The position numbers were made by a program, and so were the translations under genes. Positions 13,637 to 56,508 of a DNA stretch of 64,000 bases are shown here, one piece after another. Positions within the stretch are counted from its first letter, which is position 1; each line of letters opens with the position of its first letter. The stretch is taken from positions 1 to 64,000 of the IMG/VR virus record IMGVR_UViG_3300003937_000092; one strand, 5' to 3'. The notes under the pieces were generated by a model. The model was not told the DNA's origin, ran no database searches, and saw only the letters and a program-made list of their open reading frames with translations. The DNA comes from an uncultured virus (IMG/VR IMGVR_UViG_3300003937_000092). Its lineage: Duplodnaviria > Heunggongvirae > Uroviricota > Caudoviricetes.

Positions 13637-14626
13637 TTAGTCTCTATATGTTGATGTTTCATAATTTACACCTTTTACCCACCCATAATCAGATAAAATA
13701 TCTTCAATCTTTTGTTCAAAAATATATGTATCTAACCTATTCCAACCTTGAGTACACTCAGACCTATAACGTGGATGTATTTGAACTTCTATGTCTTCTA
13801 ATTTTTTTCTATATCTAAATACGATAGAATGAACACACGATTTACCTCTAGGTAGATTTTTTATTTCAGGTTTAATCTTCTTGTTAACTACATTTTTAAC
13901 ATAACTATCAAAATCTTCAAATAAAACATATGTGGTTTTAACACTTACAGACTTTTGTCTTGCATCATAATTACTACTATTCGCATTAACTAATCTGTTC
14001 CATATTCTACTTACAAAATCTCTAGTATTCTTGGCTTTTTTTATATTATCACCAGATTCCAATAACTTTTCAAGATTTATTATTGGTTGTACATATAAAT
14101 CCCCCCATCTAATTTCCTTAAAATTTAATTTTAACCAATCGGGGTACATTTTAGGGTTACCTTTTTTATGTATTTCTAAAAATTTTTCTAATGTTGGTAA
14201 TAATTCAGTCGCCCTTTCTTCTTTTTGTTTAGCCTTTATTTTGTATACAACAGAATTAACGTGATTTTTTAAATTTCTAAGATAAATTGCTGATGTTCTT
14301 GGTATTTTCTTATCATTATATTGATTTTTACGTCCTTTATAATAGGTGAACAATTCTGTACGGTCATCCTCATCATATTCTCTAATAAGAGTTAACGCAG
14401 ACGCGATAACTAATTCATCATAAATTTTTACTATTTCATCTAAACTTAAATCTTCAATAGTATTGATATTAAATGATAAGTTATCAATATTAACAATAGG
14501 GTCATTCTCAATACCCGTTAAAGGGTGGTCGTATTCAAAATCACGAGTACTCAATTGAGGGTGGTCCTCATATGGTACCGCATAACCACTTAAACTATCT
14601 ATTAACTTATCGTATATTGACATCAT
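13637..14626 (-). CDS. Hypothetical protein
   Basis: 329-aa ORF; ATATTTAT upstream. Confidence 0.7.
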   Translation of the reverse strand: MMSIYDKLIDSLSGYAVPYEDHPQLSTRDFEYDHPLTGIENDPIVNIDNLSFNINTIEDLSLDEIVKIYDELVIASALTLIREYDEDDRTELFTYYKGRKNQYNDKKIPRTSAIYLRNLKNHVNSVVYKIKAKQKEERATELLPTLEKFLEIHKKGNPKMYPDWLKLNFKEIRWGDLYVQPIINLEKLLESGDNIKKAKNTRDFVSRIWNRLVNANSSNYDARQKSVSVKTTYVLFEDFDSYVKNVVNKKIKPEIKNLPRGKSCVHSIVFRYRKKLEDIEVQIHPRYRSECTQGWNRLDTYIFEQKIEDILSDYGWVKGVNYETSTYRD

Positions 14627-14832
14627 ACTTATAAATATTAGTAGTAAGTAAAAAAAAAATACAATAACTTTTTTAAATCGTTTTTATTTACTACTTTTAT
14701 AAAAAGAAATTATATGTTAAAAAAAATAAGAGTGTTTTTGAATTACCTAAAATGGTTAGAGGAAAAAAGAATCGAAGCCGCAATTAAAACAGGTAGCCCG
14801 GGGGCTTTAATGTAAATCTAAAAGTAAAAAAG

Positions 14833-23388: not shown

Positions 23389-24018
23389 ATGTTTAAATTT
23401 AATTATAAAGTTGGTAGAGCGATACCTAATGTAGAGTGTCAGATAATACTGAAGGATTTGTATAGACAATCTGAGAAGTTCACTATTACTGATGCCTTTG
23501 GTGATGTCTCCCTTTCTGTTTATGAAACCCCTTATGAGGATGTGGAAGACTGTGATGGTAAGAGACTCATGGATTATAGAATTAAAGAGTTAGAGAAGTC
23601 CTTAGGTGTTAAGTTTAATAGAGATAGGTTTATCATTAAGTATACAGGTGACCGTCTCGAAATGGAACCTCATTATGATGGGAGTTATACTACCACCCTT
23701 ATTTATTTAAACAATAACTTTAGAGGTGGCTCTACTAACTTTCCTCTCGCTCGTTTAGAACATGTACCTCAGAAATATAAGCCAGGTCATTACATACATT
23801 ATAACTCTAACCATATCTTGGCTTATCATGGTGGGATGCCAGTTACAGAAGGAACTAAAACTGTTATAGTACTTAGAAGTATGAAGATAACCCCGTGGAC
23901 TATGTTAACCATATTACCGTGGCGTTTATTTAGAGATGTATTCTTCGAAAGATTTATACTTGATTGGGTCGTAAAGAAATTCTTTACGTGTGTTAACTGT
24001 AAAAGAATTAAGAAATAA
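23389..24018 (+). CDS. 2OG-Fe(II) oxygenase, lysyl/prolyl hydroxylase-like
   Basis: FIIKY...MEPHYD...LIYLNNNFRGGSTNF...YHGGMPVTEGTKTVIV (HxD...H). Confidence 0.8.
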   Translation: MFKFNYKVGRAIPNVECQIILKDLYRQSEKFTITDAFGDVSLSVYETPYEDVEDCDGKRLMDYRIKELEKSLGVKFNRDRFIIKYTGDRLEMEPHYDGSYTTTLIYLNNNFRGGSTNFPLARLEHVPQKYKPGHYIHYNSNHILAYHGGMPVTEGTKTVIVLRSMKITPWTMLTILPWRLFRDVFFERFILDWVVKKFFTCVNCKRIKK

Positions 24019-24097
24019 TGATGTTAGTAGGATTAGTAGGTTGCTCTGTAGTCTATATTGGTTATAGTATAAAAGAAAGATTTGAAGGTAGACATAA

Positions 24098-24787
24098 ATG
24101 GTAAGTATGAAAAATAATGTATTGGTACTTGGTGATGGACTCTTGGGTCGTGAATTGATTAATCAGACTAATTGGGATTATGTTTCCCGTAGTAAGGATG
24201 GTTTCGATATTAACCACCTCGATGAGTTTATATTATCTAATTATGATATTGTTATTAACTGTATTTCACATACTGATACTTACGATAAAGATAGAGAACT
24301 TCATTGGAATGTTAACTGTAAGTTTGTGGATAAGTTAATTGATTACTGTAATGAACACTTTATTAAACTTATTCATATTTCTACTGATTATGTTTATTCT
24401 AATTCCATTCCCTTCGCCAGTGAGAATGATGTCCCTGTTCATTGTAATAATTGGTACGGTTATACTAAGTTATTATCTGACGGTCTTATTCAGTTAAGGT
24501 CTGAGGATTATCTTCTTATACGTTGTTCCCATAAACCCACTCCTTTTGTATATGATAACGCTTGGATTGATTATGTCGGTAACTTCGATTATGTGGATAC
24601 TATCGCCACTCTCATTATTGATTGTATTAATAAAGATTTGTCAGGTGTGTATAACGTAGGTACAGACGTTAAGACGATGTTTGACTTAGCTAATGAGACT
24701 AATGTTGTTGAATCCTCTTTTACCCCCTCACACGTCCCTAATAATCTTTCTATGGACCTAACTAAACTTAAGTCCTCACTCCCTTAA
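24098..24787 (+). CDS. rmlD: dTDP-4-dehydrorhamnose reductase-like SDR
   Basis: VLVLGDGLLG, HISTDYVY, YGYTK. Confidence 0.75.
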   Translation: MVSMKNNVLVLGDGLLGRELINQTNWDYVSRSKDGFDINHLDEFILSNYDIVINCISHTDTYDKDRELHWNVNCKFVDKLIDYCNEHFIKLIHISTDYVYSNSIPFASENDVPVHCNNWYGYTKLLSDGLIQLRSEDYLLIRCSHKPTPFVYDNAWIDYVGNFDYVDTIATLIIDCINKDLSGVYNVGTDVKTMFDLANETNVVESSFTPSHVPNNLSMDLTKLKSSLP

Positions 24788-24790
24788 TGT

Positions 24791-25105
24791 ATGACAACAT
24801 TTGCAGTTCCACATGAAGTGATTGATGTATTGTTTGATAAACTTATTTATCCTAAACATCCTGAGCTTACTGATTGGGATATACACGAAGACACTCTTTT
24901 ATTATTTGTAGACACTAACCTAATTGATTTTACGATGAGTGATGTCATTGAGTTTGAAACTTATATAATGTTGGAAGAAGAATATGATTGTTTCACTTCT
25001 GACTATTTCTATGAGATTCTTTCGTCTGATATCATTGATACCGTTAACCGCTCTTTTGATTTAATTGACAATCATTATAAAATTGAGTTAGTTTTATCTT
25101 CTTAA
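24791..25105 (+). CDS. Hypothetical acidic protein
   Basis: ORF in operon. Confidence 0.6.
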   Translation: MTTFAVPHEVIDVLFDKLIYPKHPELTDWDIHEDTLLLFVDTNLIDFTMSDVIEFETYIMLEEEYDCFTSDYFYEILSSDIIDTVNRSFDLIDNHYKIELVLSS

Positions 25106-25146
25106 ACTATTTATAACAATGTAATCTTTCTGTTAGTGGCTCGCAC

Positions 25147-25485
25147 TTATTCCTCCCAGCCCTCTTCATCTAAACTTCTAATATAATTCCACCTTTCGAT
25201 TTCATCATTAATCGAATCCTGTTTAGTGTAGATATATAATTCACCATCATCGACATACCAATCTAATATATTTGAATCATTATCTAACGAATCCTCATTA
25301 AAAAGTTTATCTTCTTTAGGTACCAAACGTATTGTATCATCGTTGTTAACCGTAGGAATATTATCATCACTTTTTATTATCTCTTCAGTATAAGTAATAC
25401 TTCTATCTTGCATTAAAATTCTTACTACGACTAAACATGAAAGTATTATCGATATTATTGCTAAATTTTTTGATATATTTCCCAT
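25147..25485 (-). CDS. Membrane-anchored hypothetical protein
   Basis: N-terminal hydrophobic segment. Confidence 0.6.
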   Translation of the reverse strand: MGNISKNLAIISIILSCLVVVRILMQDRSITYTEEIIKSDDNIPTVNNDDTIRLVPKEDKLFNEDSLDNDSNILDWYVDDGELYIYTKQDSINDEIERWNYIRSLDEEGWEE

Positions 25486-25486
25486 A

Positions 25487-25942
25487 TTACTTACCTAAAT
25501 TATCTTTTTCTGAAATTATTGGATTATCAGTAAACTCTTCTATAATAGATTTAACTTCAGGAATATCTTTCCACACAATCGAATGTTCTGACTCAGGAGA
25601 GTATTCACCCTTAACCATATAAACAACTATGGTGTCAGGTTCTAAAGTTAAGAACCCATGAGCATACTCATCATGTAAGTAAACCGCATTCCCTTCATTT
25701 ACTATTACGTGTTGTGTTTTATGTGTTTCTAAATCATAAGCTATGTCTATAATTGAACCACGAATAACCTTAACGTATTTCTCTTGTGGTGGGTCTGTTT
25801 GATAGTGTAAACCCCTAAAGGTATATCTACCATCATTAATTGAAATGGAACATTGTGTCCATTCCTTTCCCATTATATCTAACTCCATTGGGGTATAACT
25901 CCCTCGATTATCTTTAAATGTCTTATGGTCTCTTATTATCAT
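25487..25942 (-). CDS. rmlC: dTDP-4-dehydrorhamnose 3,5-epimerase
   Basis: FKDNRG, FRGLHYQ, YAHGFLTL, YSPESEHSIVWKD. Confidence 0.85.
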   Translation of the reverse strand: MIIRDHKTFKDNRGSYTPMELDIMGKEWTQCSISINDGRYTFRGLHYQTDPPQEKYVKVIRGSIIDIAYDLETHKTQHVIVNEGNAVYLHDEYAHGFLTLEPDTIVVYMVKGEYSPESEHSIVWKDIPEVKSIIEEFTDNPIISEKDNLGK

Positions 25943-25948
25943 CTTTTA

Positions 25949-27091
25949 TTATTTATTAATTAATATACTTATCTCTCTTGCTAATTCTTTAAACCACTCC
26001 ACACTATGACCTCTTGTTGTTTCAGCTGCCGTACCTATTCGAATACCACTTGTTTCCACAAAACTTCTAGGGTCGTTAGGTATTCCATTCTTATTAACTG
26101 TAATACCGTTTTCTTCTAACATATCAGCGATTACTCTTCCACTATATTTCTTAGTTGATAAATCAATTAAAATTAAATGTGAATCGGTACCATCGGTTAG
26201 AATCGGTATATCATTTTCTCTGAAGATATCACACATATGTTTTGCATTTTCTTTTACTTTAATACAATACTCCTTAAAATCTCTTGTGTTTGCCTCTATG
26301 AAACATTGGGCCTTTGCTGCGATTATATGCATTAATGGTCCTCCCTGAGTACCAGGAAATATTGCTCCATTTATTTTCTTTGTATAGTCTGAATCGTTCC
26401 AAATAATAATACCACCTCTTGGTCCTCTAAGTGTTTTGTGTGTCGTTGAAGTTACTACATCCGCATATTCAATTGGATTGGGGTACTCACCTCCAGCAAT
26501 AAGACCTGAATAGTGAGCCATATCCACCAAAAGTATCGCTCCTACTTCATCAGCAATCTCTCTAAACTTTTTCCAATCGATTATCCTTGAGTAAGCACTC
26601 GCACCTGCAATAACCATTTTAGGTTTAACTTCTAACGCTTTAGTTCGTATATCATCATAGTTTAAATAACCATTATCATCCACACCATATGAATGAGCGT
26701 CGTATACTTTACCTGAAATATTAGGTTTACTTCCATGAGATAAGTGACCACCACTCGCTAAATCCATTCCAAGTATTGTATCACCTGGTTTTAGGAATGC
26801 TTGAAATACCGCAGTATTAGCGTTTGCACCACAATGTGGTTGAACATTAGCAAAGTTACAATTATATAACTTTTTTAATTCTTCTATTGCAAGTGTCTCC
26901 ACCTCATCCATATGGTCACATCCATTGTAATATCTTTTACCAGGATATCCTTCAGCATATTTGTTAGTGAATATTGAACCCGCCAATTTCATTACTGAAT
27001 CAGACGCAAAGTTCTCACTTGCTATTAATTCAATTGTATTAGATTGTCTAAAATTTTCTTTATCGAGTATCTCTTCTATTCTTTTGTCCAT
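25949..27091 (-). CDS. glyA: Serine hydroxymethyltransferase
   Basis: LIASENF, NKYAEGYPGKRYY, GGHLSHG, TTHKTLRGPRGG. Confidence 0.97.
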   Translation of the reverse strand: MDKRIEEILDKENFRQSNTIELIASENFASDSVMKLAGSIFTNKYAEGYPGKRYYNGCDHMDEVETLAIEELKKLYNCNFANVQPHCGANANTAVFQAFLKPGDTILGMDLASGGHLSHGSKPNISGKVYDAHSYGVDDNGYLNYDDIRTKALEVKPKMVIAGASAYSRIIDWKKFREIADEVGAILLVDMAHYSGLIAGGEYPNPIEYADVVTSTTHKTLRGPRGGIIIWNDSDYTKKINGAIFPGTQGGPLMHIIAAKAQCFIEANTRDFKEYCIKVKENAKHMCDIFRENDIPILTDGTDSHLILIDLSTKKYSGRVIADMLEENGITVNKNGIPNDPRSFVETSGIRIGTAAETTRGHSVEWFKELAREISILINK

Positions 27092-27103
27092 TTTTAAGAT
27101 ATC

Positions 27104-27979
27104 TTAATTTTTTCTACGATTATTAGTAGTGTTATTTCTACTTGGATTATTGTTCGTTCTTGTCGGTGTACTTCGATTAATTACAGGACGACTATTATTA
27201 ACTCTTGGTCTTGTATTATTATTAACTCTTGGTCTTGTATTATTATTAATGGTCGGTCTATTATTATTAATGGTAGACCTATTATTATTTGGTCTATTAT
27301 TGTTAATGGTAGGTCGACTGTTATTATTAATATAAATCTTTTCTCTTTTATTATCAACCTTAACACTACGTTTAGTTGATTCTATCATTGAAGATTGTCC
27401 TATTCTGTCTCGTATAGTCATAGTACTACCTCTTCGACCGTTGATATACGACACATTATTTCTACCTCGTCTTCCGTACCAACCATTTTGACCGTAATTG
27501 TTCCACCCGTAATAATTATTCCATCCATTACCATAGTACCCATTATATCCCCATCCGTGGTTATTCCAACCATAGTAGATTCCATATCCCCATCTATCAT
27601 ATCCAAATGGTGACCATCTATGAGGAGAACCCCAAGAATTCCACCCTGTATAACCCCAAGCCCAATCATTCCACATTTGGTCTCTATTCCAATAATAAGA
27701 ATTATATCGGTAATCATACTGTCTCCCTAACAATCGGTTATTCCAATCAAATGATACTGGTTGACTCAAGGCATATCTTGCAAAGTCTAATCTAAAACCT
27801 ATATCTGTTCTTAGTTTATTTCTAAATTGAAATTCATTTAAAGTATCCACCCTTAAATTGTCTCCAACTACATAATAATTTTCGTCATCATATATAGGGT
27901 CATGGTTTAATGTTGATACTGTAAATGTCGCACAACTTGTCGTTAGAAGTACGATTAATAATAGTAATGAATTTTTCAT
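27104..27979 (-). CDS. Lipoprotein with Y/G/W/N-rich and NNxRP low-complexity regions
   Basis: Lipobox LTTSC; 24-bp tandem duplication at 27193-27240. Confidence 0.7.
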   Translation of the reverse strand: MKNSLLLLIVLLTTSCATFTVSTLNHDPIYDDENYYVVGDNLRVDTLNEFQFRNKLRTDIGFRLDFARYALSQPVSFDWNNRLLGRQYDYRYNSYYWNRDQMWNDWAWGYTGWNSWGSPHRWSPFGYDRWGYGIYYGWNNHGWGYNGYYGNGWNNYYGWNNYGQNGWYGRRGRNNVSYINGRRGSTMTIRDRIGQSSMIESTKRSVKVDNKREKIYINNNSRPTINNNRPNNNRSTINNNRPTINNNTRPRVNNNTRPRVNNSRPVINRSTPTRTNNNPSRNNTTNNRRKN

Positions 27980-27991
27980 ATTTTTTATTGT

Positions 27992-28369
27992 TTAAAAGTT
28001 GTAATTATAAATCTTACATTCAGGATTTAAATTACTAAGATTTGGAAACGTTACATCTCCAATTTTATTATTATCAATATGAGATATGTGTAATTCCGTA
28101 AACTTATCACAGAATCTCTCATATGTTTTTTTACCTCCGATACACCAATCACAATTATAGTAGTGAAAAACGGAATGGTCCCTTTTATCAACAATCATTA
28201 ACTCTCTGTTGGGTAAAAAGGGTAGGGCTTGAGCGGTACGATAACCGACTAATAACGTATCACCATAAGTCATACGTTTGAAATGATTTAAATCTTTTTT
28301 ATTGTGCCATAAAAGTTTATCACCTTTACCGATAAAACCAAGATTGTTTACTGCTATAATTGCTTTCAT
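27992..28369 (-). CDS. folA: Dihydrofolate reductase (short)
   Basis: IIAVNNLGFIG..LLW...DLNHFKRMT, GYRT, LPNR, IGG, GDVTFP. Confidence 0.85.
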   Translation of the reverse strand: MKAIIAVNNLGFIGKGDKLLWHNKKDLNHFKRMTYGDTLLVGYRTAQALPFLPNRELMIVDKRDHSVFHYYNCDWCIGGKKTYERFCDKFTELHISHIDNNKIGDVTFPNLSNLNPECKIYNYNF

Positions 28370-28772: not shown

Positions 28773-28806
28773 GAAAACCCCTCACCATTTCTGATGAGAG
28801 GTCTTA
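28773..28806 (-). terminator. Intrinsic terminator
   Basis: aaaacccctca-ccatttctga-tgagaggt downstream of the GH7-like gene. Confidence 0.55.
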
Positions 28807-28826: not shown

Positions 28827-30224
28827 TTATATTTGTGATTCTGCTGTTACTACTAAATTAGAGAAACTCCATCCACCACCCTTATGTTCAACTGAACCTT
28901 CAGTCCAATTACATAATGTACCGTGTGAACATTCTCCACCCGTATCTTTGTACCACTTAGTTGGTTCATCATCACCAGGTGACCAATCACCGTGATATGA
29001 AGGTGTAAACCACCATCCTACTTCCATACCATCTTTTAATAAAGACATATCTAAAGTAGAACCATCACCAATAGATGGGTCAGTCATATCAAAAACTTTA
29101 ACACTACTATCTCCTTGAGAAAGTGTAATCACCATATTAGTATAATCACCATTAAAGACAGTAACCATATGAAATGGTTTAGTAGGGTCAATCTTACCAA
29201 CTAAACTGTGTACACCTCCAAGTGTTGATGATGTCATTTCATCCCAATTCCAACAATCAGTATTCGCAGCTTCAGTATATGAAACTTCCCACCTTTGTTT
29301 ACCCTTTTTAATTGTGTCTAAATGTAACGTATGTTGGAACATTTTATTACCGTTAGTCTCTAATAAATCAATTTCATTACAGAAGTCACATTGTTCGTAT
29401 TCCGCATCACAGTATTTATCACCAATAGGTTGTACGTCTCTAGTAACTAAGTACATCGCCGCGTTTAAGTAATCCGCGGTCCACCCTTTATTTTGTTGTA
29501 ACCCCGATAAGTCAATGTCAACTTCAATTTTACTGATATTTTTATATCCATTTTTTGAACACACTCTACCTGCCGCAGGATTTCCTTCTGTACCAAAACT
29601 TACACCACCAGAACTAACTATAGGGTTAGGTCCACATTTTTGATAATCAACATCAAATTCAGGTATAAAAGTTGTTTGAGTTGTCTCCTCAGGACATATA
29701 CATGGGTCTTTAAACGGACATGGACAACCCTCTATACCTACAGGACTCACTTTACCTGTAGTAGCATCAACACTCACAAAACCTTTACTAGTCGTGAAAA
29801 TGTACTGTGCAAAGTTAAATCCTGGTTCTAACGGTCTTCTTAAGACTACTTCAGACCAATCAGCAACTCCTTCAACTCCTGTACCATATCCCGCGTCCAA
29901 TAATAATTGTTCAGCATCCTCTAAAGTAAGTTTTACAGGTAATTTTATTACCTCATCTTCCATAAATGGAGAATTAATCACTTTAGATTTTGTCTTCCCA
30001 TTAGAATCACACAACACCTCAATAGTAGTGTTGTTAACACCCGCGAATACCGATTTAACACCCGTTAATTCTTTAGTTGCAGTTGATTCATAAAATAAAG
30101 CGGTAGTATCAATACTTTTTGCCGCTTCCTGTGTTTGATTTACCATCTCATTGAAAGTTAAATCGTTTTGTTGAGTACATCCAATTAAGAGTAATCCCAA
30201 CATCATTGTTAATAGTTTTTTCAT
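28827..30224 (-). CDS. Lipoprotein with PepSY-like region and clan GH-B (GH7-like) glycoside hydrolase domain
   Basis: Lipobox LLIGC; VSVDATTGKV; VDIDLSGL, LNAAMYLV, YCDA, CNEIDLLETN, IDPTKPFHMVTVF, SFSNL. Confidence 0.7.
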   Translation of the reverse strand: MKKLLTMMLGLLLIGCTQQNDLTFNEMVNQTQEAAKSIDTTALFYESTATKELTGVKSVFAGVNNTTIEVLCDSNGKTKSKVINSPFMEDEVIKLPVKLTLEDAEQLLLDAGYGTGVEGVADWSEVVLRRPLEPGFNFAQYIFTTSKGFVSVDATTGKVSPVGIEGCPCPFKDPCICPEETTQTTFIPEFDVDYQKCGPNPIVSSGGVSFGTEGNPAAGRVCSKNGYKNISKIEVDIDLSGLQQNKGWTADYLNAAMYLVTRDVQPIGDKYCDAEYEQCDFCNEIDLLETNGNKMFQHTLHLDTIKKGKQRWEVSYTEAANTDCWNWDEMTSSTLGGVHSLVGKIDPTKPFHMVTVFNGDYTNMVITLSQGDSSVKVFDMTDPSIGDGSTLDMSLLKDGMEVGWWFTPSYHGDWSPGDDEPTKWYKDTGGECSHGTLCNWTEGSVEHKGGGWSFSNLVVTAESQI

Positions 30225-30358
30225 TTTTGTTTTTTTGTTTTATCTTTATTTATTATATTGCCGTACTCATCACATAAAGGTGCGGTTATAATTTCATAAA
30301 TTATAAATATCCATGAAATTAAGAATGAACCTATGATTATTTTGATTAACATATTATT

Positions 30359-31972
30359 CTATTTTTCCGTATTCTTTTTTTCGTTTATATCAAAATTCTC
30401 CTTCTCATAACCCTCTATATCATTGTAAGCATAAGTCTCAAAATTAGGATTTGTTTCAACCCAAGTTTTATATTCATATTGGTTATTTTTATTAACAAAT
30501 ATCTCATTAACTCTTAATTTTCTTTCTTCTAATTCCATCAACTGTTGATGTAAGTATTCCCTTTGTTCTCTATATTCAGGTTTATAAGCTAAATTATGTG
30601 ATTCCTCAATATCGTTAACTAAGTCGTATAACTCATATTCTTTTTGATATCTACCTAATGAATCGAAATAATATGTGTACTTCCAATCATGTGTACGGAT
30701 TGCCCTTAATCTATTAGTTGCTTTAACAGAAGATGGTAAATTATTCGAACCCGACTTAGTATCATCAAAAGTAAATAATATAGAATCTTGAACTGATTTA
30801 CCTTCCTCAATTATTGGTATTAAACTCTCACCTCTTGAGTTACTGTCTTTAGGTACACCAACAATCTCAGATATCGTTGGGAATATATCAATAAGTGTTG
30901 CTAATTCATCTGACGATTCTTTTTTGTTAAACACAATAGGGTTTGATATCACCATAGGTATTCTTAACGCCTCTTCATAAGCAACAAAAGCCTTTTGTCT
31001 CATACCACCATGTGACATCCCCATCTCTCCGTGGTCCGCCAATCTTATAACCACCGCATCATCAGCGAGTCTACTACCTTTGGTATCATCATAAAGTACA
31101 TCAATAAATTTACCAATTTCACCATCAATCTTAGTTAGTAGGTATGCGTAAAAATTTAAGTAATTCAATTTCATATCATCATTTCGTAAGACACCTAATA
31201 AACCATCAGCAGCAATGTTTGTTTGTAATTGAGCCATAGGTTTACCATTTTTAAGTAATTGTTCCGTAACTGTAGGTGGTAAGTCGGTAATAGTTCTACC
31301 AGTATATTCATCGGGAGTATAACCAAATTGTACTGACTTTGGATAACCTAACACATCATGAGGATTTACTAAACTTAATACTAAACAATAAGGTTTTCTT
31401 GGTTCACCCTTTTGTCTACTGATTCTTACCTGTTCTAAATACTCTATACCTTCTTTCACATACCTTGCATCAGCATTTGGATAACCCCCACCAAAGTTTT
31501 CAGGTTTCGCATCTTCACCCGCATCAGGTCCAACCCAACCTTTAAACCCATAAAGTGATATTTCTTTAGCTAATGGGTCACCACCATCAGCACCTTTACT
31601 TAAATGCCATTTACCTCTGTATTGTACATCGTAACCGATACTATCTAACATCTTACCAATGTTATTACTTTTATTATTTAATTGTATTTCACCAGGTGAG
31701 TATATACCACCTGTTGTTAAGGTTTCAGTACATTGATGTTGTGATGGGTACGTACCAGTAAATAAAGTAGCTCTACTCGGTGTACACATACAACTATTAC
31801 AGAAGGCTTTATCAAATGTGAAACCATTATCTTTTAATTTAGTTAGTGTTGGTAGATTTTCTTGTTCCCATCCTTCAGGAAAGTACTGAGTGGCTCTCTC
31901 TTGGTCTGTTATTATTATTACAATATCAGGTTTATCAACAAGTAATTCTTTAAATTTGTTTTGTTTTTTCAT
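30359..31972 (-). CDS. Formylglycine-dependent (S1) sulfatase
   Basis: IITDQER, CTPSRATLFTG, GKWHL, NPHD, ADHGEMG..HG, ELYDLVND. Confidence 0.92.
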   Translation of the reverse strand: MKKQNKFKELLVDKPDIVIIITDQERATQYFPEGWEQENLPTLTKLKDNGFTFDKAFCNSCMCTPSRATLFTGTYPSQHQCTETLTTGGIYSPGEIQLNNKSNNIGKMLDSIGYDVQYRGKWHLSKGADGGDPLAKEISLYGFKGWVGPDAGEDAKPENFGGGYPNADARYVKEGIEYLEQVRISRQKGEPRKPYCLVLSLVNPHDVLGYPKSVQFGYTPDEYTGRTITDLPPTVTEQLLKNGKPMAQLQTNIAADGLLGVLRNDDMKLNYLNFYAYLLTKIDGEIGKFIDVLYDDTKGSRLADDAVVIRLADHGEMGMSHGGMRQKAFVAYEEALRIPMVISNPIVFNKKESSDELATLIDIFPTISEIVGVPKDSNSRGESLIPIIEEGKSVQDSILFTFDDTKSGSNNLPSSVKATNRLRAIRTHDWKYTYYFDSLGRYQKEYELYDLVNDIEESHNLAYKPEYREQREYLHQQLMELEERKLRVNEIFVNKNNQYEYKTWVETNPNFETYAYNDIEGYEKENFDINEKKNTEK

Positions 31973-35554: not shown

Positions 35555-36613
35555 TTAATTACTTAATGGAGCTTTAATAGTTGGTTTATAATTATAATTT
35601 ATTAATTCATAGTTGAATTCACCACCTAATAAATTAACACCTTTAAAGTTAATATGTGGTAAATCGTAACCTTCTCTCTTAATCTGTTCTTTAGCCTGAT
35701 TTAAATGATTTTGATATAAATGGACATCACCTAAATTACCTATTAATTGGTCTGGTATCATATGTACCTCTTTTGCAATTAACATAAGTAAAGTAGCATA
35801 TGAAGAAATGTTAAATGGTAACCCTAAGAATGTGTCTACAGACCTTTGGTTCCACATTAATGATATAGCTCTCTTTGGTGTTGGTTCGTGTCTTTTATCA
35901 TCAAAATCAGGTAGGTTTTTAGGGTCGAAATATCTTTCCATACCTGTCTCATAATTATTTTTGAACCAGTATTCATATCTCTCTTTATCAGTTAATAATC
36001 TAGTGTATATTTGAAACCCATAATGACATGGAGGTAAAGTCATTAAATCTAACTCCCCAACATTCCAAGCACTAACCATTAACCTTCTTGAGTCTGGATT
36101 CCTTTTAAGTTGTTCAAGTAAATTTTTAATTTGGTCAACACTTTTTTCGTTATAAACTTGTAACGTATCCCCTTCAAATACTTGCTCACCTTCTTGAAAC
36201 CATCCTCTCCACTGAGCACCATATACAGGACCTAACTCACCCCATGTCTTTGCAAATTCATCATCGGTTTTGATTCGTTCAATAAACTCATCCATAGTAT
36301 CAGGCCAATTACCTTTATACTCATTAGTTTTACTAATATAGTTTTTGAAAGCATCACCATTCCAAATGTTACATCCGTTGTCCACCAAGTACTTGATGTT
36401 GGTATCTCCTTTTAAGAACCACTTCAATTCAGTCATCATTGTTTTGACTGCCATCTTCTTTGTGGTAAGAAGAGGAAACCCTTCTTTCATATTATGTCTT
36501 ATAGTATAACCAAAAATAGACTTAGTACCCGTACCAGTCCTATCTGATTTATCTACACCATGTTCTAAAATAGTAGATAGTAATTCGTTATATTGTTTAT
36601 CAATACTATTCAT
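35555..36613 (-). CDS. thyA: Thymidylate synthase
   Basis: DRTGTGT, LGPVYGAQWR, LPPCHY, QRSVDTFLGLPFN, GDVHLYQNH. Confidence 0.97.
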   Translation of the reverse strand: MNSIDKQYNELLSTILEHGVDKSDRTGTGTKSIFGYTIRHNMKEGFPLLTTKKMAVKTMMTELKWFLKGDTNIKYLVDNGCNIWNGDAFKNYISKTNEYKGNWPDTMDEFIERIKTDDEFAKTWGELGPVYGAQWRGWFQEGEQVFEGDTLQVYNEKSVDQIKNLLEQLKRNPDSRRLMVSAWNVGELDLMTLPPCHYGFQIYTRLLTDKERYEYWFKNNYETGMERYFDPKNLPDFDDKRHEPTPKRAISLMWNQRSVDTFLGLPFNISSYATLLMLIAKEVHMIPDQLIGNLGDVHLYQNHLNQAKEQIKREGYDLPHINFKGVNLLGGEFNYELINYNYKPTIKAPLSN

Positions 36614-41556: not shown

Positions 41557-43935
41557 TTAAGCTATATCAAATTTTTGTAATTCTTCAATTGAGTGTTCTC
41601 TAGCTCTTCTCTTAGGACTTCCTGAATTAACATCAGCAAAATATAATGTAGACTCTTTAGGGTTACTAAACTCAGGTACACCTTTACTAATTAAGAATTT
41701 TACAGCAACTTCGGCAGCTGTTTTATCATCTAACATCTTATCAGGGTCACTAACGATATCAATACCAACTTTATTTCCATATTTTTGATAATTAGCTTTA
41801 CCCGTTAATTGGTTATAACCTCTACCAACGTATTTTGAACCATCATTTTTATTATTATTACCAATTCTACCATTATATACTAAATTAAAAAACTTATCAT
41901 AGTCTCTCTTTAAATCATTTAATTCTGAATCAGACATCTTTCTAGTTTTTGAAAATATTTTATTAATTCTACGATTAGATGTATTATGATAACCTCTTTC
42001 TTTTTTATTAATAAAATGAGTTTCTTTACCTATTACCGCTAACATACCAATTTGTGCGACTGGGTCTGTAATACCGTTCTCAATCATAGTATCAATTAAT
42101 CTTTGTATTCCTTTAGATGCTTTACCTGAGTACGTATGAGTTATCTTACCATCTAATGTAGTAAACTCCTTACTTGAATATGTATATTTTTCTATATCCT
42201 TATCTTCTATATTTTCATTTTTTAATTTATTATACATTAAATCTTTAGTTCCTGTAGAAAAAATCCCGTTTTCCTCTAATTTGTTGTCTCTCTTAAATTT
42301 ATTTAACGCTCTTTCTGTTTCGGGTCCGAATAACCCATCGACACCATACACCGGTAATTCATAACCTAATAAAGATAATCCAATCTGAAATGACTCAACA
42401 TCTTGTTTAAATCTCATATTTTTACGGTCACTTCTTTCGATGTCACCTTCAATATTGTTAATATTAACTAATAATTGATTACTATCAGCATCGACTAATT
42501 CAGCCTTGTCTGCTTGTTCATTTAATCCTTTTGATTCATTTATTTTTTCTTTAAGTTTTCTTACGAACTCTTTTTGAATCATCTTAACAAACTTAACATA
42601 TGGTGAATCACCTCTATCTTTACTATACTTGTACTTACCTTCAGGTTTTCTCTTACCTCTTCCGAAGTAATTTAACGCAGATATGTTTGTAATACATTTG
42701 TGTCCACCTGAGTTAGCTTGAATCATTTCCCATGCCGGTACACCTAACTTATCTAATATAGCCCACTCATCTTCAGTTAACTTAGTAGATGGTTTGTCCA
42801 TAATATCTTTTAATTTTTCCATATAGTCATCACCCCCATCCATTGAACGAACCTTATCACCATAAAAGGCTTCTAAATCCGCATTAGTGAAACCAACTGA
42901 CTCATCTCCAAATTGTTTATTACCTTCTGATATCCATTTGATAGTAGATAAAGGAATTATCTTTTCTCTTAATTGACTCTCCCATTTACTTAATACTTCT
43001 TGAGCTATATCACCTAAGTTAACACCTTTCAATTCTCTCTCACCTTTAAATGGGTTACATGACGCTTGTACTAACCCCATTGGCCAAGCGATTACTATAA
43101 AGTCAGCTTCAGGATTATTTTTAAATGGAGTATAACGGTCATAAGAACCTGGTTTAAACATTGAACCTCCTCCGTATTGTACTATAATTCCGTCATCAAC
43201 ATAAACTTTATCACTATCTTTTTGTTTCTGTACATAATCTTTTTGATTTAAAGCCATCTCTTCAGGTAACGCATACCCCTTTTCAGCAGCTAATCTATTA
43301 ATGTTTTGAAATATGTTTAATAGTGATGGTTGAGATGTCATTACTAAATCTTCCATAAAACCTGGTTTATTCTTATAAGCTAACATAAGTTTGTTAGTTG
43401 CTAAACCTAAGGCCATTTTATTTTTCTGTAATGACTTATCTTTTTGTAATTTAAATACAAAATTCATTATATCTTGTGGTTCTAACCCATACTTAGCAAA
43501 ATCTGCAGAATCGACTGTAGATATTAATCTAATATCATCGGCAGTAAAGATATCACTTGGTGACATTATTTGAGATAAAGTCTCAACATTTGAACGTGAC
43601 GACCTGAATGATGTTGATGTGTCGCCTTCCACACCTGTTTGACTATCATGATGGTCTGTATGTACAACAAACATCGGCTTTCCATGTGCGAAATCAACTA
43701 AAACCGGCATCGTATCACCTTTAGCATCTTGTTTCTTTACCGCAAATTCCTTATCACCGTATTGTATTATTTCAGAATCAACAACTTTAATTCCATTATT
43801 CTCTAAATAATTTTTCATAGCTAAGGCAGTCGTAACACCGTCTAAATCTTGATGAAAATATATTTTAGCTTTCTCATATCTCTTAGATAAATCGTTGATA
43901 TTTCTTAATCCTGATTCTTTAATTAATTTTTTCAT
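41557..43935 (-). CDS. DHH-like phosphoesterase + peptidoglycan-binding + GH19-like muramidase fusion
   Basis: HQDLDG, VDF, TDHH, SGGH; VDGLFGPETERALNKFK; YVGRGYNQLTGKANY. Confidence 0.8.
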   Translation of the reverse strand: MKKLIKESGLRNINDLSKRYEKAKIYFHQDLDGVTTALAMKNYLENNGIKVVDSEIIQYGDKEFAVKKQDAKGDTMPVLVDFAHGKPMFVVHTDHHDSQTGVEGDTSTSFRSSRSNVETLSQIMSPSDIFTADDIRLISTVDSADFAKYGLEPQDIMNFVFKLQKDKSLQKNKMALGLATNKLMLAYKNKPGFMEDLVMTSQPSLLNIFQNINRLAAEKGYALPEEMALNQKDYVQKQKDSDKVYVDDGIIVQYGGGSMFKPGSYDRYTPFKNNPEADFIVIAWPMGLVQASCNPFKGERELKGVNLGDIAQEVLSKWESQLREKIIPLSTIKWISEGNKQFGDESVGFTNADLEAFYGDKVRSMDGGDDYMEKLKDIMDKPSTKLTEDEWAILDKLGVPAWEMIQANSGGHKCITNISALNYFGRGKRKPEGKYKYSKDRGDSPYVKFVKMIQKEFVRKLKEKINESKGLNEQADKAELVDADSNQLLVNINNIEGDIERSDRKNMRFKQDVESFQIGLSLLGYELPVYGVDGLFGPETERALNKFKRDNKLEENGIFSTGTKDLMYNKLKNENIEDKDIEKYTYSSKEFTTLDGKITHTYSGKASKGIQRLIDTMIENGITDPVAQIGMLAVIGKETHFINKKERGYHNTSNRRINKIFSKTRKMSDSELNDLKRDYDKFFNLVYNGRIGNNNKNDGSKYVGRGYNQLTGKANYQKYGNKVGIDIVSDPDKMLDDKTAAEVAVKFLISKGVPEFSNPKESTLYFADVNSGSPKRRAREHSIEELQKFDIA

Positions 43936-51497: not shown

Positions 51498-52553
51498 ATG
51501 AAAGAAAAAATTATCAATATACTATCGGGAGGTTCAGGTGAGGTTGAAGACTTTATCAACCGTTATCTCAATGGAGATAAGGATAGTTTTTTTGATTTGT
51601 TAGAAAGGTTTGGGTTACTTCAAAACTCCGACACATACGAAAGTGTTATTGAAATGTTTCCAATGACTTATCTAAGAAAGAGTTATATTGATGACCGTAA
51701 AAAAACTATCGATAACATTGTTTCCACTTATAGTGATATAACTAAGAAAGGTGATAAATATTTTTTAACTCTTGGTGAAAGGTCAGACTTAAGTATTTTT
51801 TTTAAATCAGATGACGGTAATCGTGAAATGTCATCATCGGAAATGGTTAAAAATATTTTAGGTGAAGATGATTGGTTCGAACCATTTAGCGATGTTACTC
51901 AAAATTTGTATACCGATGTTATTGAAGAGTTAAATGAAAAAAATAAATTCTTACTTGCCAAATCAATATCTGAAGAATTATCAGGAACTCAAATTTCACC
52001 CGAAACTGAGTTATTAGAAAATATGGCTAAAGACCAAGGTCACCCCGATTATGTTGATGTTAAAGACCCTATGTTAGTAATGGATATTTTAGAAGAAGAT
52101 GAAACATCTACTAAAGTTTTATTAGATGAAGCTTCTGAAGTTTCAAGTAATTTATATTCACTTCACCATAACTCATATAATACAGCATATACCGATGAAA
52201 AGTATAATGAAATAATGAGTGAAGTTAGAAGTTTATTGGAGATAGATAATAGTGGTGATTGGGAATCTAAGACCATAAAGAATAGTAAAGGTGAGGAGAA
52301 AACTATATATAACTACATCATTGAAGTTACCAAATTCATACCTTTTTTATTTAGTTCAATTTTTAATGATGACTATCAATTAGATGATTATAGAAATGCA
52401 TTTGACTATTATGGTGACTTTGAAGACCTCACTAAAGAAATGATTACTGAGGAAGTAATTGAAGGTGCATCAATGAGTAGAAGTTATTATGATTATGCCG
52501 ACCATACTTTAGTTAAAAAGTATTTAAATGATATGATTATTGATTACGTTTAA
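51498..52553 (+). CDS. Hypothetical acidic protein
   Basis: 351-aa ORF; ATATTTAT upstream. Confidence 0.7.
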   Translation: MKEKIINILSGGSGEVEDFINRYLNGDKDSFFDLLERFGLLQNSDTYESVIEMFPMTYLRKSYIDDRKKTIDNIVSTYSDITKKGDKYFLTLGERSDLSIFFKSDDGNREMSSSEMVKNILGEDDWFEPFSDVTQNLYTDVIEELNEKNKFLLAKSISEELSGTQISPETELLENMAKDQGHPDYVDVKDPMLVMDILEEDETSTKVLLDEASEVSSNLYSLHHNSYNTAYTDEKYNEIMSEVRSLLEIDNSGDWESKTIKNSKGEEKTIYNYIIEVTKFIPFLFSSIFNDDYQLDDYRNAFDYYGDFEDLTKEMITEEVIEGASMSRSYYDYADHTLVKKYLNDMIIDYV

Positions 52554-55500
52554 ACTTTCCCTCTAACTCAGTTAGTTCACCATCTTTATCCTTTAAGATT
52601 AATTCTTGTTCCTTAATTGCTTCAAATAATACTGAGATTAATTGTTCATAACTAACTTTATAACCTCTTTCTTCTGAACCACCAATTAATTCAGGTAAAA
52701 CTTCTTTTACCTCTTGAGCAATAACTCCAATATCTTTTCTACCACCATCAAGTAAAACGGTACCATCGAGATTTTCTTCTTTCCATATAAATTCAACACC
52801 ACGTAGATTTAAAACTTTCTGTAAAGGTGTATCAATTTTTTTAATATTTTCCTTTAATCTTTTATCGGAAAAAGAACCCGCCGGACCTTGGGCTCCTGCC
52901 GGTCCTTGAGTTCCTTGAATACCTTGTGAGCCTTGACTTGAAGTTCGTCCTTTTAAACCTTTTTCTCCGGTTCTACCTTTAATCCCTTTAAGTCCTTTTG
53001 GTCCTTTTTGTCCTGCTGGCCCTGTTGGTCCGCCAGAACCTGTAGGTCCTTTTGGACCTTGCGGACCTTGTGGTCCATCTTTACCAAGTACACCTTTTGG
53101 ACCTTTAGGTCCTTTATAACCTTTATGTCCTTTTAGGCCTTTTGGTCCTTTAGCTCCTTTAGGACCTTTAGGTCCTTTAAGACCTTTTTCAGTACTTGCC
53201 GGTCCTTGTGGTCCTGTATCACCTACGTCTCCTGACCCTTGAGATAATCTTGGTCCTTTTAAACCTTGGGGTCCTTGCGGTCCTCTAGGACCTTTGTAAC
53301 CTTTTGGACCTTTAAATCCTTTTTCCCCTGTATTCCCCTTATGACCTTTAGGTCCTTTGGGTCCTTGTCCACCTTTGAACCCTTTAGGTCCTTTTGGTCC
53401 TTGACTACCTACATTTCCTCTTGGTCCCTTTTCTGAACTTGCCGGACCTTCTTTACCTGTCGGACCTGTCGCCCCTCCAGAGGCTTTGGGTCCTTGTGGA
53501 CCTGTAGGCCCTTGCGGTCCTCGTGGTCCTTGGGGTCCTCGTGGTCCTGGCTCATTACCATCAGCACCTACAGCCCCTTTAGGTCCTTGTGGACCTTGTC
53601 CAGGTTGATAACCTGTAGGTCCTTGTGGACCTTGTCCACCTCTCGGACCTTTAATACCTTTATTACCTTTATCCGTACTTGCCGGACCTTGTGGTCCTGT
53701 AGGTCCATTAAGACCTTGACTAGCTTTAGGTCCTTGTGGTCCTTGTGAACCCTGAGGCCCTCTTGGACCCTTATTACCTTCTGGTCCCCTAACAGAACTT
53801 GCCGGTCCTTGTGGACCTTGTTGACCCGTTGCCGCTCTCGGCCCTTTGTAACCCTTAATACCTTTATCTGATGTTTGTGATTTAAGACCACCTTTTAAAC
53901 CTTTATTACCTTTATCAGTACTTGATGGACCTGTCGGTCCTTGTGGACCTGTATCACCACCAGAACCTTGTGTTGCCTTAGGCCCTTGTGGTCCTAAATC
54001 ACCTTTAATACCTTTATTACCTTGTGGACCTCTATCTGTACTTGCCGGACCTTGTGGTCCTGTAGGTCCATTAGTACCTTGACTAGCTTTAGAACCTTGT
54101 GGTCCTTGCGAGCCTTGGCTTTGTCGTGGACCTATAGCTCCTTTTGGTCCTGCAGTATTACCTGCCGGTCCTTTGGGTCCTGTTGGTCCTTGAATACCTG
54201 TACCTGACGCACTACCTTGGGGACCTCGGTTACCATCATTACCTTGTGGTCCTTTTGGTCCTATTGGACCTCTATCAGTACTTGCAGGTCCTTTTGGTCC
54301 TGTAGGACCTGTTGCCCCATTAGATGCTTTAGGTCCTTGTGACCCTTGTGTACCTCTCCCTGTCTGTAAACCTTTTGGTCCTTTATAACCTTTTAAACCT
54401 TTATCTGTTGAAGATGGTCCCTTATCACCTTGTGTGGTATTTTTAGTACCTTTTGGTCCTGTAGGACCGGTGGGGCCATTTGGTCCTTTAGTACCTTTAT
54501 AACCTTTTTGCCCTTTAATACCTTTATCAGTACTTGATGGACCTGTCGGTCCTTGTCCACCGGTAGTTCCCTTTGGTCCTGTCGGACCTTGAGGTCCTTG
54601 TCCACCTTGATTACCTCTAGGACCTTTTGGTCCTTGTGTTCCTTTATCAGTATTAGTTGGACCTGTTGGTCCTTGTGGACCTTTAAGTCCTTTATCGGCA
54701 TTATTAGGTCCTGTTGGTCCGTTGGGTCCTGTTGGTCCCGTTATACTATTTCCAATAGTTCCTCTCGGTCCATCTGTACCTTTCGGTCCTTTGATACCTT
54801 TGATACCTTTATTACCTTTATTTGTGGACGTACCACTCGGACCTTTTTCAGCTGTTGGACCTGTTGGTCCTTGTGTTCCTCTCGCCCCTTTAGGTGAAGT
54901 ACCAATTGTACCTCTCGGTCCTTGAAAACCTTTAGGTCCCTTATCACCTGTAGGTCCTTGTAGTCCTTTATCTGTATTTGTTGGTCCAATATCTCCACCA
55001 ACGGCAACATCACCTATAAGTCCCTTTTCATTATTACCTTGAGGTCCCTGAGGCCCTTGTGGTCCTCTTAACCCTTTAGTACCTTCTGGTCCTTTTAAAC
55101 CTTTGTCAGAACTTGCAGGTCCAATTGGTCCTTGTGGACCTGTAGGTCCTTGTGACCCTGAACTAGTTGATGATTGTGGTCCGATTAATCCTTTAATACC
55201 TTTGATACCAATTAATCCCTTTAACCCTTTCGTACCTTTATCAGTACTTGCCGGTCCTTGAGGTCCGTTATCTCCACCAGAACCTGTAGGTCCTTTTAGT
55301 GAATCACCCTGCAACCCTCTATCTCCATCAAATCCTTTTGGTCCTGTCGGTCCTTGTGGACCTATTGGTCCTTTAACGGCTGCTGGTCCACCTGGACCTG
55401 TTGGACCTTGTGGTCCGATAAATCCTTTTTCACCTTGTGTACCTATTACACCTCTACCTTGTTTAGGTCCTTTAATACCCTTGATACCTTTAATACCCTT

Positions 55501-56508
55501 GATACCTTTATCACCTTTGTCTGTAGATTGTGGACCTCTTGGTCCTAAATCACCATCAGGTCCTTGTACACCTACAATACCATCAGGACCTTGCGGACCT
55601 TGTGGTCCTGTAAGACCTTTTATACCTTTGTTACCAATAGGTCCTTTATCAGCGGTAGGTCCTGTTGGTCCTTGTGGTCCATTATCCCCATCTGTCGACC
55701 TAACACCTTTATCACCTTGTGGACCTTGATTTCCAAGAATACCTTTTTGTCCCTTTACACCTTTTATACCTTTTGGTCCTTTTTGACCTTTATCTGATGA
55801 TGTCGGCCCTTTTAAACCTGTTGGCCCTTGAGGTGAATCACCACCTATACTACCTTTTGGTCCTTGTTCAGGTTTTAGACCCTTATTTCCTTTAACACCT
55901 TTAAGACCTGTCGGACCTTTAGTTCCTTTATCTGAAGATGTTAACCCTTTTAGACCTGTTGGTCCTTTAAGACCTTTTGTTGAGTCTGACGGCTTTAACC
56001 CTTTTAACCCTTTAGGTCCAACAATACCTTTCTCACCTTGTGGTCCTCGGTTACCTTTATCCCCTTTGACTGAAAGCTCACCTTTGATTCCTTTTTCTCC
56101 GTCAGAACCAATACCACCTTTGATACCGAAGTCACCTTTATCACCTGTAGGTCCAACGATTCCCTGAATACCTTTATTACCTTTTAAACCTTTATCACCG
56201 TCAACACCTTGTAGTCCTTTGAGACCTTTTTGACCTTTAAGACCTTCTGTCTGCCCAACCCAATGACCTCCAGAGTCAACTACCATCATACTACCAACAT
56301 AAAGTTCACTATTAATAACATTAACCTCACCTGGTAATGATAATGGAGTAGCACTATCAGATATTTTAAAAATATTTGTAGAAGACTTAAATACTAAATC
56401 ACCTGTAGTATCTATTTCAATAGTATAATCAACACCTGTACCACTAAAAATTATATGTGGATTGGTGTTTAATGTACTTCCCGTAGGATATATTATAATA
56501 TTAGCCAT
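52537..56508 (-). CDS. Collagen-like tail fibre with C-terminal S74 intramolecular chaperone
   Basis: >1000 aa of interrupted Gly-[11 protein letters not shown]...IGVIAQEV. Confidence 0.9.

Follow-up and report, generated by a model that had tools for sequence, protein, structure and literature searches.

The window, a stretch of 64,000 nucleotides, is the opening part of a virus record of 72 kb that CheckV estimates to be 25% complete, which places the whole genome near 290 kb. A gene on its minus strand (28827..30224) encodes a predicted bacterial lipoprotein of 465 amino acids (P0001), with a signal peptide II and lipobox cysteine (Cys16; 30177..30224, minus strand) recognized by sequence reading and a regular expression; a lipobox-like start is likewise found by regular expression in 44 of 51 distinct full-length viral members of the family described below. 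The signal peptide is followed, on the same strand, by an N-terminal domain of ~150 residues with no assigned function (residues 17–165; 29730..30176), a Cys-Pro linker (residues 167–178; 29691..29726), and a predicted GH7-like catalytic domain of 280 residues (residues 186–465; 28830..29669), assigned as a β-jelly roll from its model, fold matches, and profile. This last domain is 100% identical in four IMG/VR contigs. In a related phage, the segment at 28834..29688 (minus strand) is exchanged for a different clan GH-B module, as established by blastn and a base-by-base reading of the junctions, and the swap junction lies at the linker end.

A preliminary description of this DNA had placed the GH7-like domain at 28827..29640. 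The gene is longer, reaching 30224, and the domain begins near residue 186 (29669), about 10 residues before the edge at 29640. The motifs on which that description relied all lie in one minus-strand open frame and in the order given: VDIDLSGL (residues 235–242), LNAAMYLV (253–260), YCDA (271–274), CNEIDLLETN (282–291), TLH (299–301), IDPTKPFHMVTVF (345–357), DGM..GWWFTPS (398–409), and SFSNL (453–457).

Directly 3′ of the gene is a terminator-like hairpin with a 14-pair stem and T tail (28774..28805, minus strand), which is also present in the swapped allele; two terminator-like hairpin sites were found against 0.4 expected. The motif ATATTTAT (30303..30310, minus strand), a candidate phage promoter, lies 86 nt upstream of the gene, and the same motif stands upstream of 20 of the 59 window ORFs in coding orientation, mostly 12–28 nt before the start. 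A scan for sigma-70 promoters stayed at chance level (6 found, 8.8 expected). The adjoining gene (30359..31972, minus strand) encodes a sulfatase (PF00884, E 1e-37) without an evident signal peptide.

Elsewhere, the window carries genes for collagen-like tail fibers, endolysin, and thymidylate synthase. A metabolic cluster (23389-28369 and 35555-36613) encodes a 2OG-Fe(II) oxygenase, RmlD- and RmlC-like sugar enzymes, and thymidylate synthase, together with ORFs resembling serine hydroxymethyltransferase and DHFR, both named by eye. A lipoprotein-like ORF of 291 residues (27104-27979, minus strand), rich in Trp, Gly, Tyr, and Asn and with an Asn/Arg/Pro tail, gave no family in a Pfam scan, PHROGs, or NCBIfam, and related phages also have it near their cassette. 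The region 52537-64000 encodes three collagen-like proteins in a row (1323, 1773, and 1325 residues), the first matching tail-fiber PHROGs and the last running past the window end. Next to a lysozyme-like endolysin gene lies that for a 792-residue protein (41557-43935, minus strand), whose C-terminal domains resemble endolysins and whose N-terminal half is unassigned.

The host is probably a Bacteroidota bacterium. An SD core was found before none of 59 genes (3.0 expected), the regions before the starts are A-rich, and a close relative encodes nearby a TonB-dependent receptor whose SusC-like N-terminus scores below the cut-off; these features fit Bacteroidota without proving it. Searches with two other window proteins revealed no cultured close relative and hence no host match. 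Outer-membrane transporters encoded near the GH7-like gene include a TonB-dependent receptor (L005:9186-11612) and a Gram-negative porin (L029:11000-11899). The stretch is present in 18 sequencing runs from 13 studies, marine where labelled, of which nine are recorded as RNA; in all four RNA runs examined, a single contig spans the head and linker junction, contigs of this kind showing neither transcription nor its level.

Predicted fold and active site of the GH7-like domain

The domain was modeled with high confidence (pLDDT 93.5, pTM 0.92), and the model and Foldseek indicate the β-jelly roll of clan GH-B, the fold on which the preliminary description had made its assignment depend. Every match listed by Foldseek down to rank 40 is a GH7 enzyme, and the first GH16 enzyme appears at rank 41. 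A wide structural search returned 8POF at Z 18.2 (rmsd 3.6, 240 residues aligned), two further GH7s at 17.4 and 16.4, and then EG16 at 14.7, and a second examination of the fold placed 46 GH7 entries at Z 16.4–18.2 before the first GH16, again EG16, at 15.1. Carrageenases, agarases, and porphyranases ranked lower in the fold search (Z ≤12.6), and a viral structure library gave weak matches to the model (best E 4e-6). The solved GH7 structures share 14–20% identity with the domain at rmsd 3.1–3.6 and are too distant for a substrate to be transferred from them; since most GH7 entries tied within one Z unit, the fold picks neither an endo- nor an exo-type enzyme.

The putative active site is defined by the motif E284-x-D286-x-x-E289 (29358..29375, minus strand), whose acidic residues align with E212, D214, and E217 of TrCel7A and by this homology are the predicted nucleophile, helper, and acid/base. 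In TrCel7A these residues act in a two-step retaining mechanism, as laid out in the available text of PMC8987026. The triad, described earlier as intact, is invariant in all 43 rows of alignment A2 (hand-picked and mostly full-length), as are Y271, C272, and D273 of the GH7-type YCD motif (29406..29414, minus strand), Q297, and H301. The YCD position is a gap in 12 of 14 GH16 rows, and C272 likely pairs with C282. β-Bulge GH16 enzymes also have ExDxxE, according to the accessible portion of PMC6827312, so other positions are more telling: N254, Y258, C282, N291, and S409 are GH7-like in 30–32 of 33 family rows and unlike GH16, and with R220 and W424 included the agreement with GH7 columns is 28–32 of 33, in an alignment whose rows were cut around a match to YCD plus ExDxxE and which therefore contains YCD by construction. 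The GH7 motif set is present throughout (YCD, N-x-x-x-Y, Cys before the nucleophile, ExN after the acid/base, and T-x-H). The GH16_3 pattern WPA...WXX...WPX, as given in the same portion of PMC6827312, is absent; most GH16 rows have W-P-A at the WPA columns, whereas the family has N-A-A, part of a GH7-type NAA-x-Y column.

The spacer between YCD and the nucleophile is 8–19 residues long in the family and 23–38 in canonical GH7. This agrees with the earlier term "loop-less", and from the short spacer and the 280-residue domain length the tunnel-forming loops of the GH7 cellobiohydrolase type are predicted to be absent. The GH7-type positions compared above presumably line the minus subsites. 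Residue 411, at the conserved GH7 Trp platform after the last core Ser (W367 of TrCel7A), is His in P0001 and Trp in 35 of 35 GH7 rows, so the minus subsites would differ from those of GH7; the 33 family rows have Trp in 25 cases and His in 6. The head is under purifying selection, with dN/dS of 0.03–0.18 for the domain in four pairs.

Family membership, distribution, and phylogeny

Searched alone, P0001 matched no Pfam family even at E ≤1, no GH7 chain among PDB sequences at E ≤10, and nothing useful in PHROGs or NCBIfam. The GH7 profile PF00840 gave no match at E ≤1 in P0001, in any of 30 family members, or in the genome itself, P0001 and the family members stayed below the PF00722 (GH16) cut-off, and a profile built here from 42 bacterial GH16 domains scored P0001 at 3.7 bits. 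Among 50,697 annotated phage records, a collection that may lack those nearest to this phage, no match to the GH7-like head was found.

The family of P0001 was drawn from 686 candidates, 46 of which belong, and has 50 cluster representatives at E ≤0.001. Pfam GH7 was detected in three of 22 scanned members (P0088 and P0089 above the cut-off, P0095 below) and GH16 in none, these three being among the weakest of the 50 representatives. Searched against 177,635 PDB sequences, a 43-row family profile matched GH7 8POF at E 5.1e-13 and the fungal GH7 5W0A at 0.0039, with the best GH16 at 0.15. By hhalign, the family profile gave 98.9% with small GH7s (E 1.5e-17), 97.8–98.0% with canonical GH7s, and 13.1% with 40 bacterial GH16 domains, and in a set of 121 proteins the top family-profile scores went to small eukaryotic GH7-like proteins (E 1e-9 to 1e-38). 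The ESM Atlas, taken as a lead only, placed two unnamed viral clusters first (0.95 and 0.93) and GH7 and GH16 clusters tied at 0.88.

Given the 8POF profile match and best fold matches that are GH7 enzymes, the GH7 likeness of the domain is more than chance, and by profiles, model, and fold searches it is much nearer to GH7 than to GH16. A distant GH7 relative in a phage is well supported, and the profile, fold, and residue tests all bear out the idea that a bacterial virus encodes a GH7-like enzyme free of loops. By its predicted mode of action the head would resemble a small GH7 endoglucanase. We assign it to an unnamed family of clan GH-B adjoining GH7 and do not file it as GH7, because PF00840 does not match it, His stands at the conserved Trp position, and its branch lies outside the sampled GH7 clade. 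A literature search, with most subscription papers outside its reach, found no bacterial or viral GH7 or GH7-like family.

One search pattern yielded 83 matches at 75 viral loci, and viral and bacterial loci together form 20 groups at 80% identity. The viral carriers are low-GC large phages like that of the window, T4-like phages with the gene placed between the two ribonucleotide reductase genes, and at least two giant-virus loci (L057, from a GVMAG record, and L075, beside an Rpb1 gene), whose copies are without a signal peptide. Bacterial copies are rare, comprising four loci in Halieaceae MAGs (L079 amid housekeeping genes) and one in a planctomycete; five of 301 genomes sampled from the family of the Haliea genome matched, one of them only partly. 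With the protist members Biecheleria P0066 and, more distant, Pirum P0095, the family is conserved across giant viruses, protists, and phages of marine and fresh waters that are unrelated to one another. A Bacteroidetes locus (L081, E 3e-4) was dropped as a member, none of its ORFs matching the family profile. At several loci from unrelated phage groups (L021, L029, L061, L066, and L070), the GH7-like gene sits between the genes for the large and small ribonucleotide reductase subunits. Two small GH7s from JGI (P0163 and P0164, 322 and 295 residues) are close to the chytrid ones, which go unmentioned in the available part of PMC6690862; scans of two small GH7s against viral contigs, which reach close relatives only, found nothing.

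In three trees (86, 44, and 32 rows), rooted on GH16 by assumption, with long branches meeting at that point and RsSymEG1 absent, the Pfam-GH7 rows lie on one side of a branch that excludes the family, supported at 95 (SH-aLRT), 99/96, and 99/96 (two models). One family row and two GH7 rows missed by the motif pattern and one poorly aligned GH16 row had been dropped. Monophyly of the family is weaker (90, not recovered, and 35/15) because the eukaryote-like P0062 wanders. Mean paths are 2.95 between family and GH7, 4.29 between family and GH16, and 5.32 between GH7 and GH16. The preliminary description had suggested a GH7/GH16 intermediate as one possible origin, and the family is indeed nearer to GH16 than the Pfam-GH7 rows are, but it is much nearer to GH7 than to GH16. 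It falls outside the 5–13 GH16 rows used, mostly bacterial and laminarinase-like, so that the placement within a bacterial GH16 subfamily against which the assignment was to be judged did not appear among these sampled sequences.

The other suggested origin, horizontal acquisition, fares less well in its simplest form: a Pfam-GH7 branch that excludes the family at 99/96 does not favor recent capture of a eukaryotic GH7. It is also unlikely that the phage family arose by horizontal uptake and reduction of a eukaryotic GH7, such as a short GH7 of the dinoflagellate type. Forcing the family together with the two short GH7 domains of P0089 was not rejected (p-AU 0.10), and Pirum P0095 and Biecheleria P0066 lie near or inside the family; against such an uptake are the separation of the Pfam-GH7 rows under both models, the rejection of nesting with chytrid-type small GH7s (p-AU 0.007), and a diversity within the family close to that of the sampled GH7s (mean path 1.45 versus 1.61). 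That the domain is instead an unrecognized GH16 subfamily or a dead lectin-like jelly roll with a superficial GH7 likeness is highly improbable and largely refuted. GH16 does share ExDxxE and the following His, and plant EG16 is the next fold match (Z 14.7–15.1), but hhalign gives 13% to GH16 versus 98–99% to GH7, a GH7-type NAA-x-Y column replaces the GH16_3 WPA, and the catalytic residues are invariant.

Exchange of catalytic heads on a shared scaffold

The N-terminal domain has no Pfam or PHROG family and gave a weak PepSY lead in the Atlas (score 0.76), and a scan with it recovered 21 viral loci with four architectures. In L137/L234, blastn identity to the window holds at 96.4% as far as the Cys-Pro linker's end (29689) and picks up again in the last codons of the GH7-like gene (28833), with flanks 96% identical on both sides; the ~430 residues encoded between the flanks are different and finish with a domain that contains a separate ExDxxE and that we term type B (2950-4779 in L137). 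Type B is also carried on the scaffold in L140 and L146–L148, the scaffold stands by itself in L138, L150, and L151, and it is fused to a Cys-rich domain in L152–L154. The L138 record, 297 kb long and 99% complete, has neither head, so that the head is dispensable in this relative, and none of five records searched has both. The two catalytic head types found at the locus both belong to clan GH-B. The type B swap in L137/L234 and the headless L138 record establish the head as an optional, exchangeable accessory cartridge on a shared scaffold. Neither this exchangeability nor the spread of the family to a few bacteria, giant viruses, and protists had been recognized in the preliminary description.

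Type B occurs at at least 60 metagenome loci (including L140, L146–L148, L235, and L239–L298), and its E, D, and E residues are invariant in 38 of 38 rows. It has no Pfam match and no match among the 50,697 annotated phage records. Its model is a jelly roll (pLDDT 87), for which Foldseek lists EG16 and laminarinases first and the wide structural search gives laminarinases at Z 15.0–15.1 with 8POF tied at 14.5; on the model, type B is a second unnamed clan GH-B family with a predicted GH16-like fold. An unassigned domain of ~130 residues precedes it, and its carriers are mostly low-GC lipoproteins, with some high-GC contigs and some long multidomain proteins (L261 and L286).

Other modules recur at the cassette. 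A Cys-rich exported "FCGAS" domain (L005:4703-5422, L066:6866-7414, P0031, L061:5899-7434, and L152–L154), with no Pfam or PDB match and none among the 50,697 annotated phage records, is present in at least 512 viral stretches; fusions place it on either side of the GH7-like head or join it to the N-terminal scaffold. It was rejected as an obligate partner: it lies beside or fused to the head in 8 of 20 groups, yet the 72-kb contig studied here is without it, and only 9 of the 79 best FCGAS loci have a head within ~5 kb. The sulfatase was rejected as a fixed partner, being present in L138 without a GH head and absent beside GH heads in L005 and L146. Small modules of 125–180 residues, likewise unassigned, recur at L005:4136-4672, L015:8404-8781, L058:4690-5202, and the C terminus of L070, where the module is fused to the GH7-like head. 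A window gene at 13637-14642 has a 71% identical copy at L150:1403-2390, just upstream of the cassette, and nearby genes therefore appear to move as well.

The precise replacement of one unnamed clan GH-B head by another provides a testable mechanism. As a broader account, which we put forward tentatively, aquatic jumbo phages would carry a cassette in which one lipid-anchored scaffold receives, by recombination at the Cys-Pro linker, a head from one of two clan GH-B families, both undescribed; the GH7-like one would be a surviving, mostly viral sister of GH7 that keeps the small loop-less ancestral state that gave rise to the GH7 cellulases of eukaryotes, with viruses as its main reservoir and as a shuttle between bacteria and protists.

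Proposed function and comparison with known systems

Taking the evidence together, we lean toward a lipid-anchored envelope endo-β-glucanase of the infected cell that acts on soluble β-glucan, serves feeding, and has a swappable head. The infected cell, probably a Bacteroidota bacterium, would export the protein and lipidate it to the envelope. The head, in a clan GH-B family next to GH7, is very probably an active retaining glycanase and is envisaged as an open-cleft endo-β-glycanase. By analogy with GH7, E284 would attack the anomeric carbon in a double displacement, and E289 would protonate the leaving group and then activate water, with D286 and H301 assisting. Without tunnel loops, the enzyme would make internal cuts in soluble chains rather than travel along crystalline cellulose. 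A widespread β-glucan with β-1,4 links, of the mixed-linkage or soluble cellulose type, is a reasonably likely substrate, and its cleavage outside the cytoplasm would supply oligosaccharides to the infected cell, though feeding taken on its own is a tentative assignment. Recombination at the end of the Cys-Pro linker would bring in the second clan GH-B module or leave the scaffold empty. A widespread glucan and feeding are favored because one conserved family serves very different viruses, and a spread over unrelated viruses would fit a common polymer better than a strain-specific capsule.

A serious rival, less probable but with the same chemistry, is that the enzyme trims an envelope glycan of the host (capsule, exopolysaccharide, receptor, or periplasmic glucan), blocking superinfection or freeing progeny at lysis, with heads swapped to follow host glycan types. 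The swap fits both roles. Several observations lean toward trimming: the lipobox-like anchor in 44 of 51 viral members, the exact head swap in a 96% identical phage, the range of other exported modules that this locus carries, and the want of a steady transport partner, genes for uptake or for exo-glycosidases being absent from the steady neighbors of the GH7-like gene in the 20 family groups. Host-interaction genes, too, typically swap modules, and many family members are in T4-like phages with a Gram-negative porin, whose hosts need not be glycan foragers; both points count against feeding. Trimming, in turn, is at odds with selection within the head that is purifying, not diversifying, with one conserved family across phages of apparently different hosts and giant viruses without signal peptides, and with just two catalytic head types at the locus.

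It is rather improbable that the active clan GH-B head works mainly as a transglycosylase or on a non-glucan such as chitosan, xylan, or sulfated galactan, activities that some GH7 and GH16 enzymes have. The low identity to characterized GH7s, the Trp-to-His change at 411, the sulfatase adjoining the gene here and at a Halioglobus locus, and a chitosanase activity within GH7 (noted in the available part of PMC12323267) would be consistent with it, but GH7-type minus-subsite residues are retained, carrageenases, agarases, and porphyranases reach only Z ≤12.6, and the sulfatase does not co-vary with the head.

Among industrial cellulases GH7 is the main family; it is described from eukaryotes, and the presence of a compact relative in phages and, rarely, in bacteria bears on the divergence of GH7 and GH16. 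In ocean metatranscriptomes GH7 is read as a fungal signal, according to the accessible text of PMC12323267. Both phage families are missed by standard Pfam annotation, and the glycan-degrading capacity of marine viruses is therefore undercounted. A small scaffold made by bacterial machinery should be easy to express, and the natural swap supplies two alleles on one scaffold in near-identical phages, so that their substrates can be compared directly.

Among known systems, GH16 enzymes (EG16 5DZG; the GH16_3 laminarinases 4BOW and 8XPH) resemble the phage domain in their clan GH-B fold, similar small size, β-bulge ExDxxE, and His on the next strand; they differ in their lower fold scores (Z 12.6–15.1), in hhalign (13%), in having no YCD, and in a WPA pattern that is absent from the phage family. 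According to the portion of PMC7571853 available, GH7 is described from eukaryotes, fungi among them, and prokaryotes rely on GH48 for the same task. Canonical GH7 enzymes (PF00840; TrCel7A and TrCel7B) share with the phage domain the jelly-roll core (Z 16.4–17.8), triad, YCD, N-x-x-x-Y strand, T-x-H, C272/C282 pair, and W424 column. Unlike them, the phage domain is ~90–155 residues shorter than the solved chains (371–437 residues) and is predicted to be without tunnel loops, and its family has no Pfam GH7 match and lies outside the sampled GH7 clade.

Closer in size are the eukaryotic Pirum gemmata P0095, the short tandem GH7 P0089, and the chytrid GH7s P0166–P0169, for which no tested activity was found; they have an equally short loop and the highest family-profile scores but lie on separate branches and have no lipobox. 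The nearest solved counterpart is RsSymEG1 (8POF, 321 residues), a small GH7 endoglucanase of a termite-gut protist known here from its PDB title and alignments, which gives the best profile match (E 5.1e-13), ranks first by fold (Z 18.2, a tie with many other GH7s that lie within 1 of it), and shares the short YCD-to-nucleophile loop and the order of motifs. The phage domain differs from it at 20% identity, in its length of 280 residues, and in the His at the conserved Trp, and it forms part of a predicted viral lipoprotein with an extra N-terminal domain.
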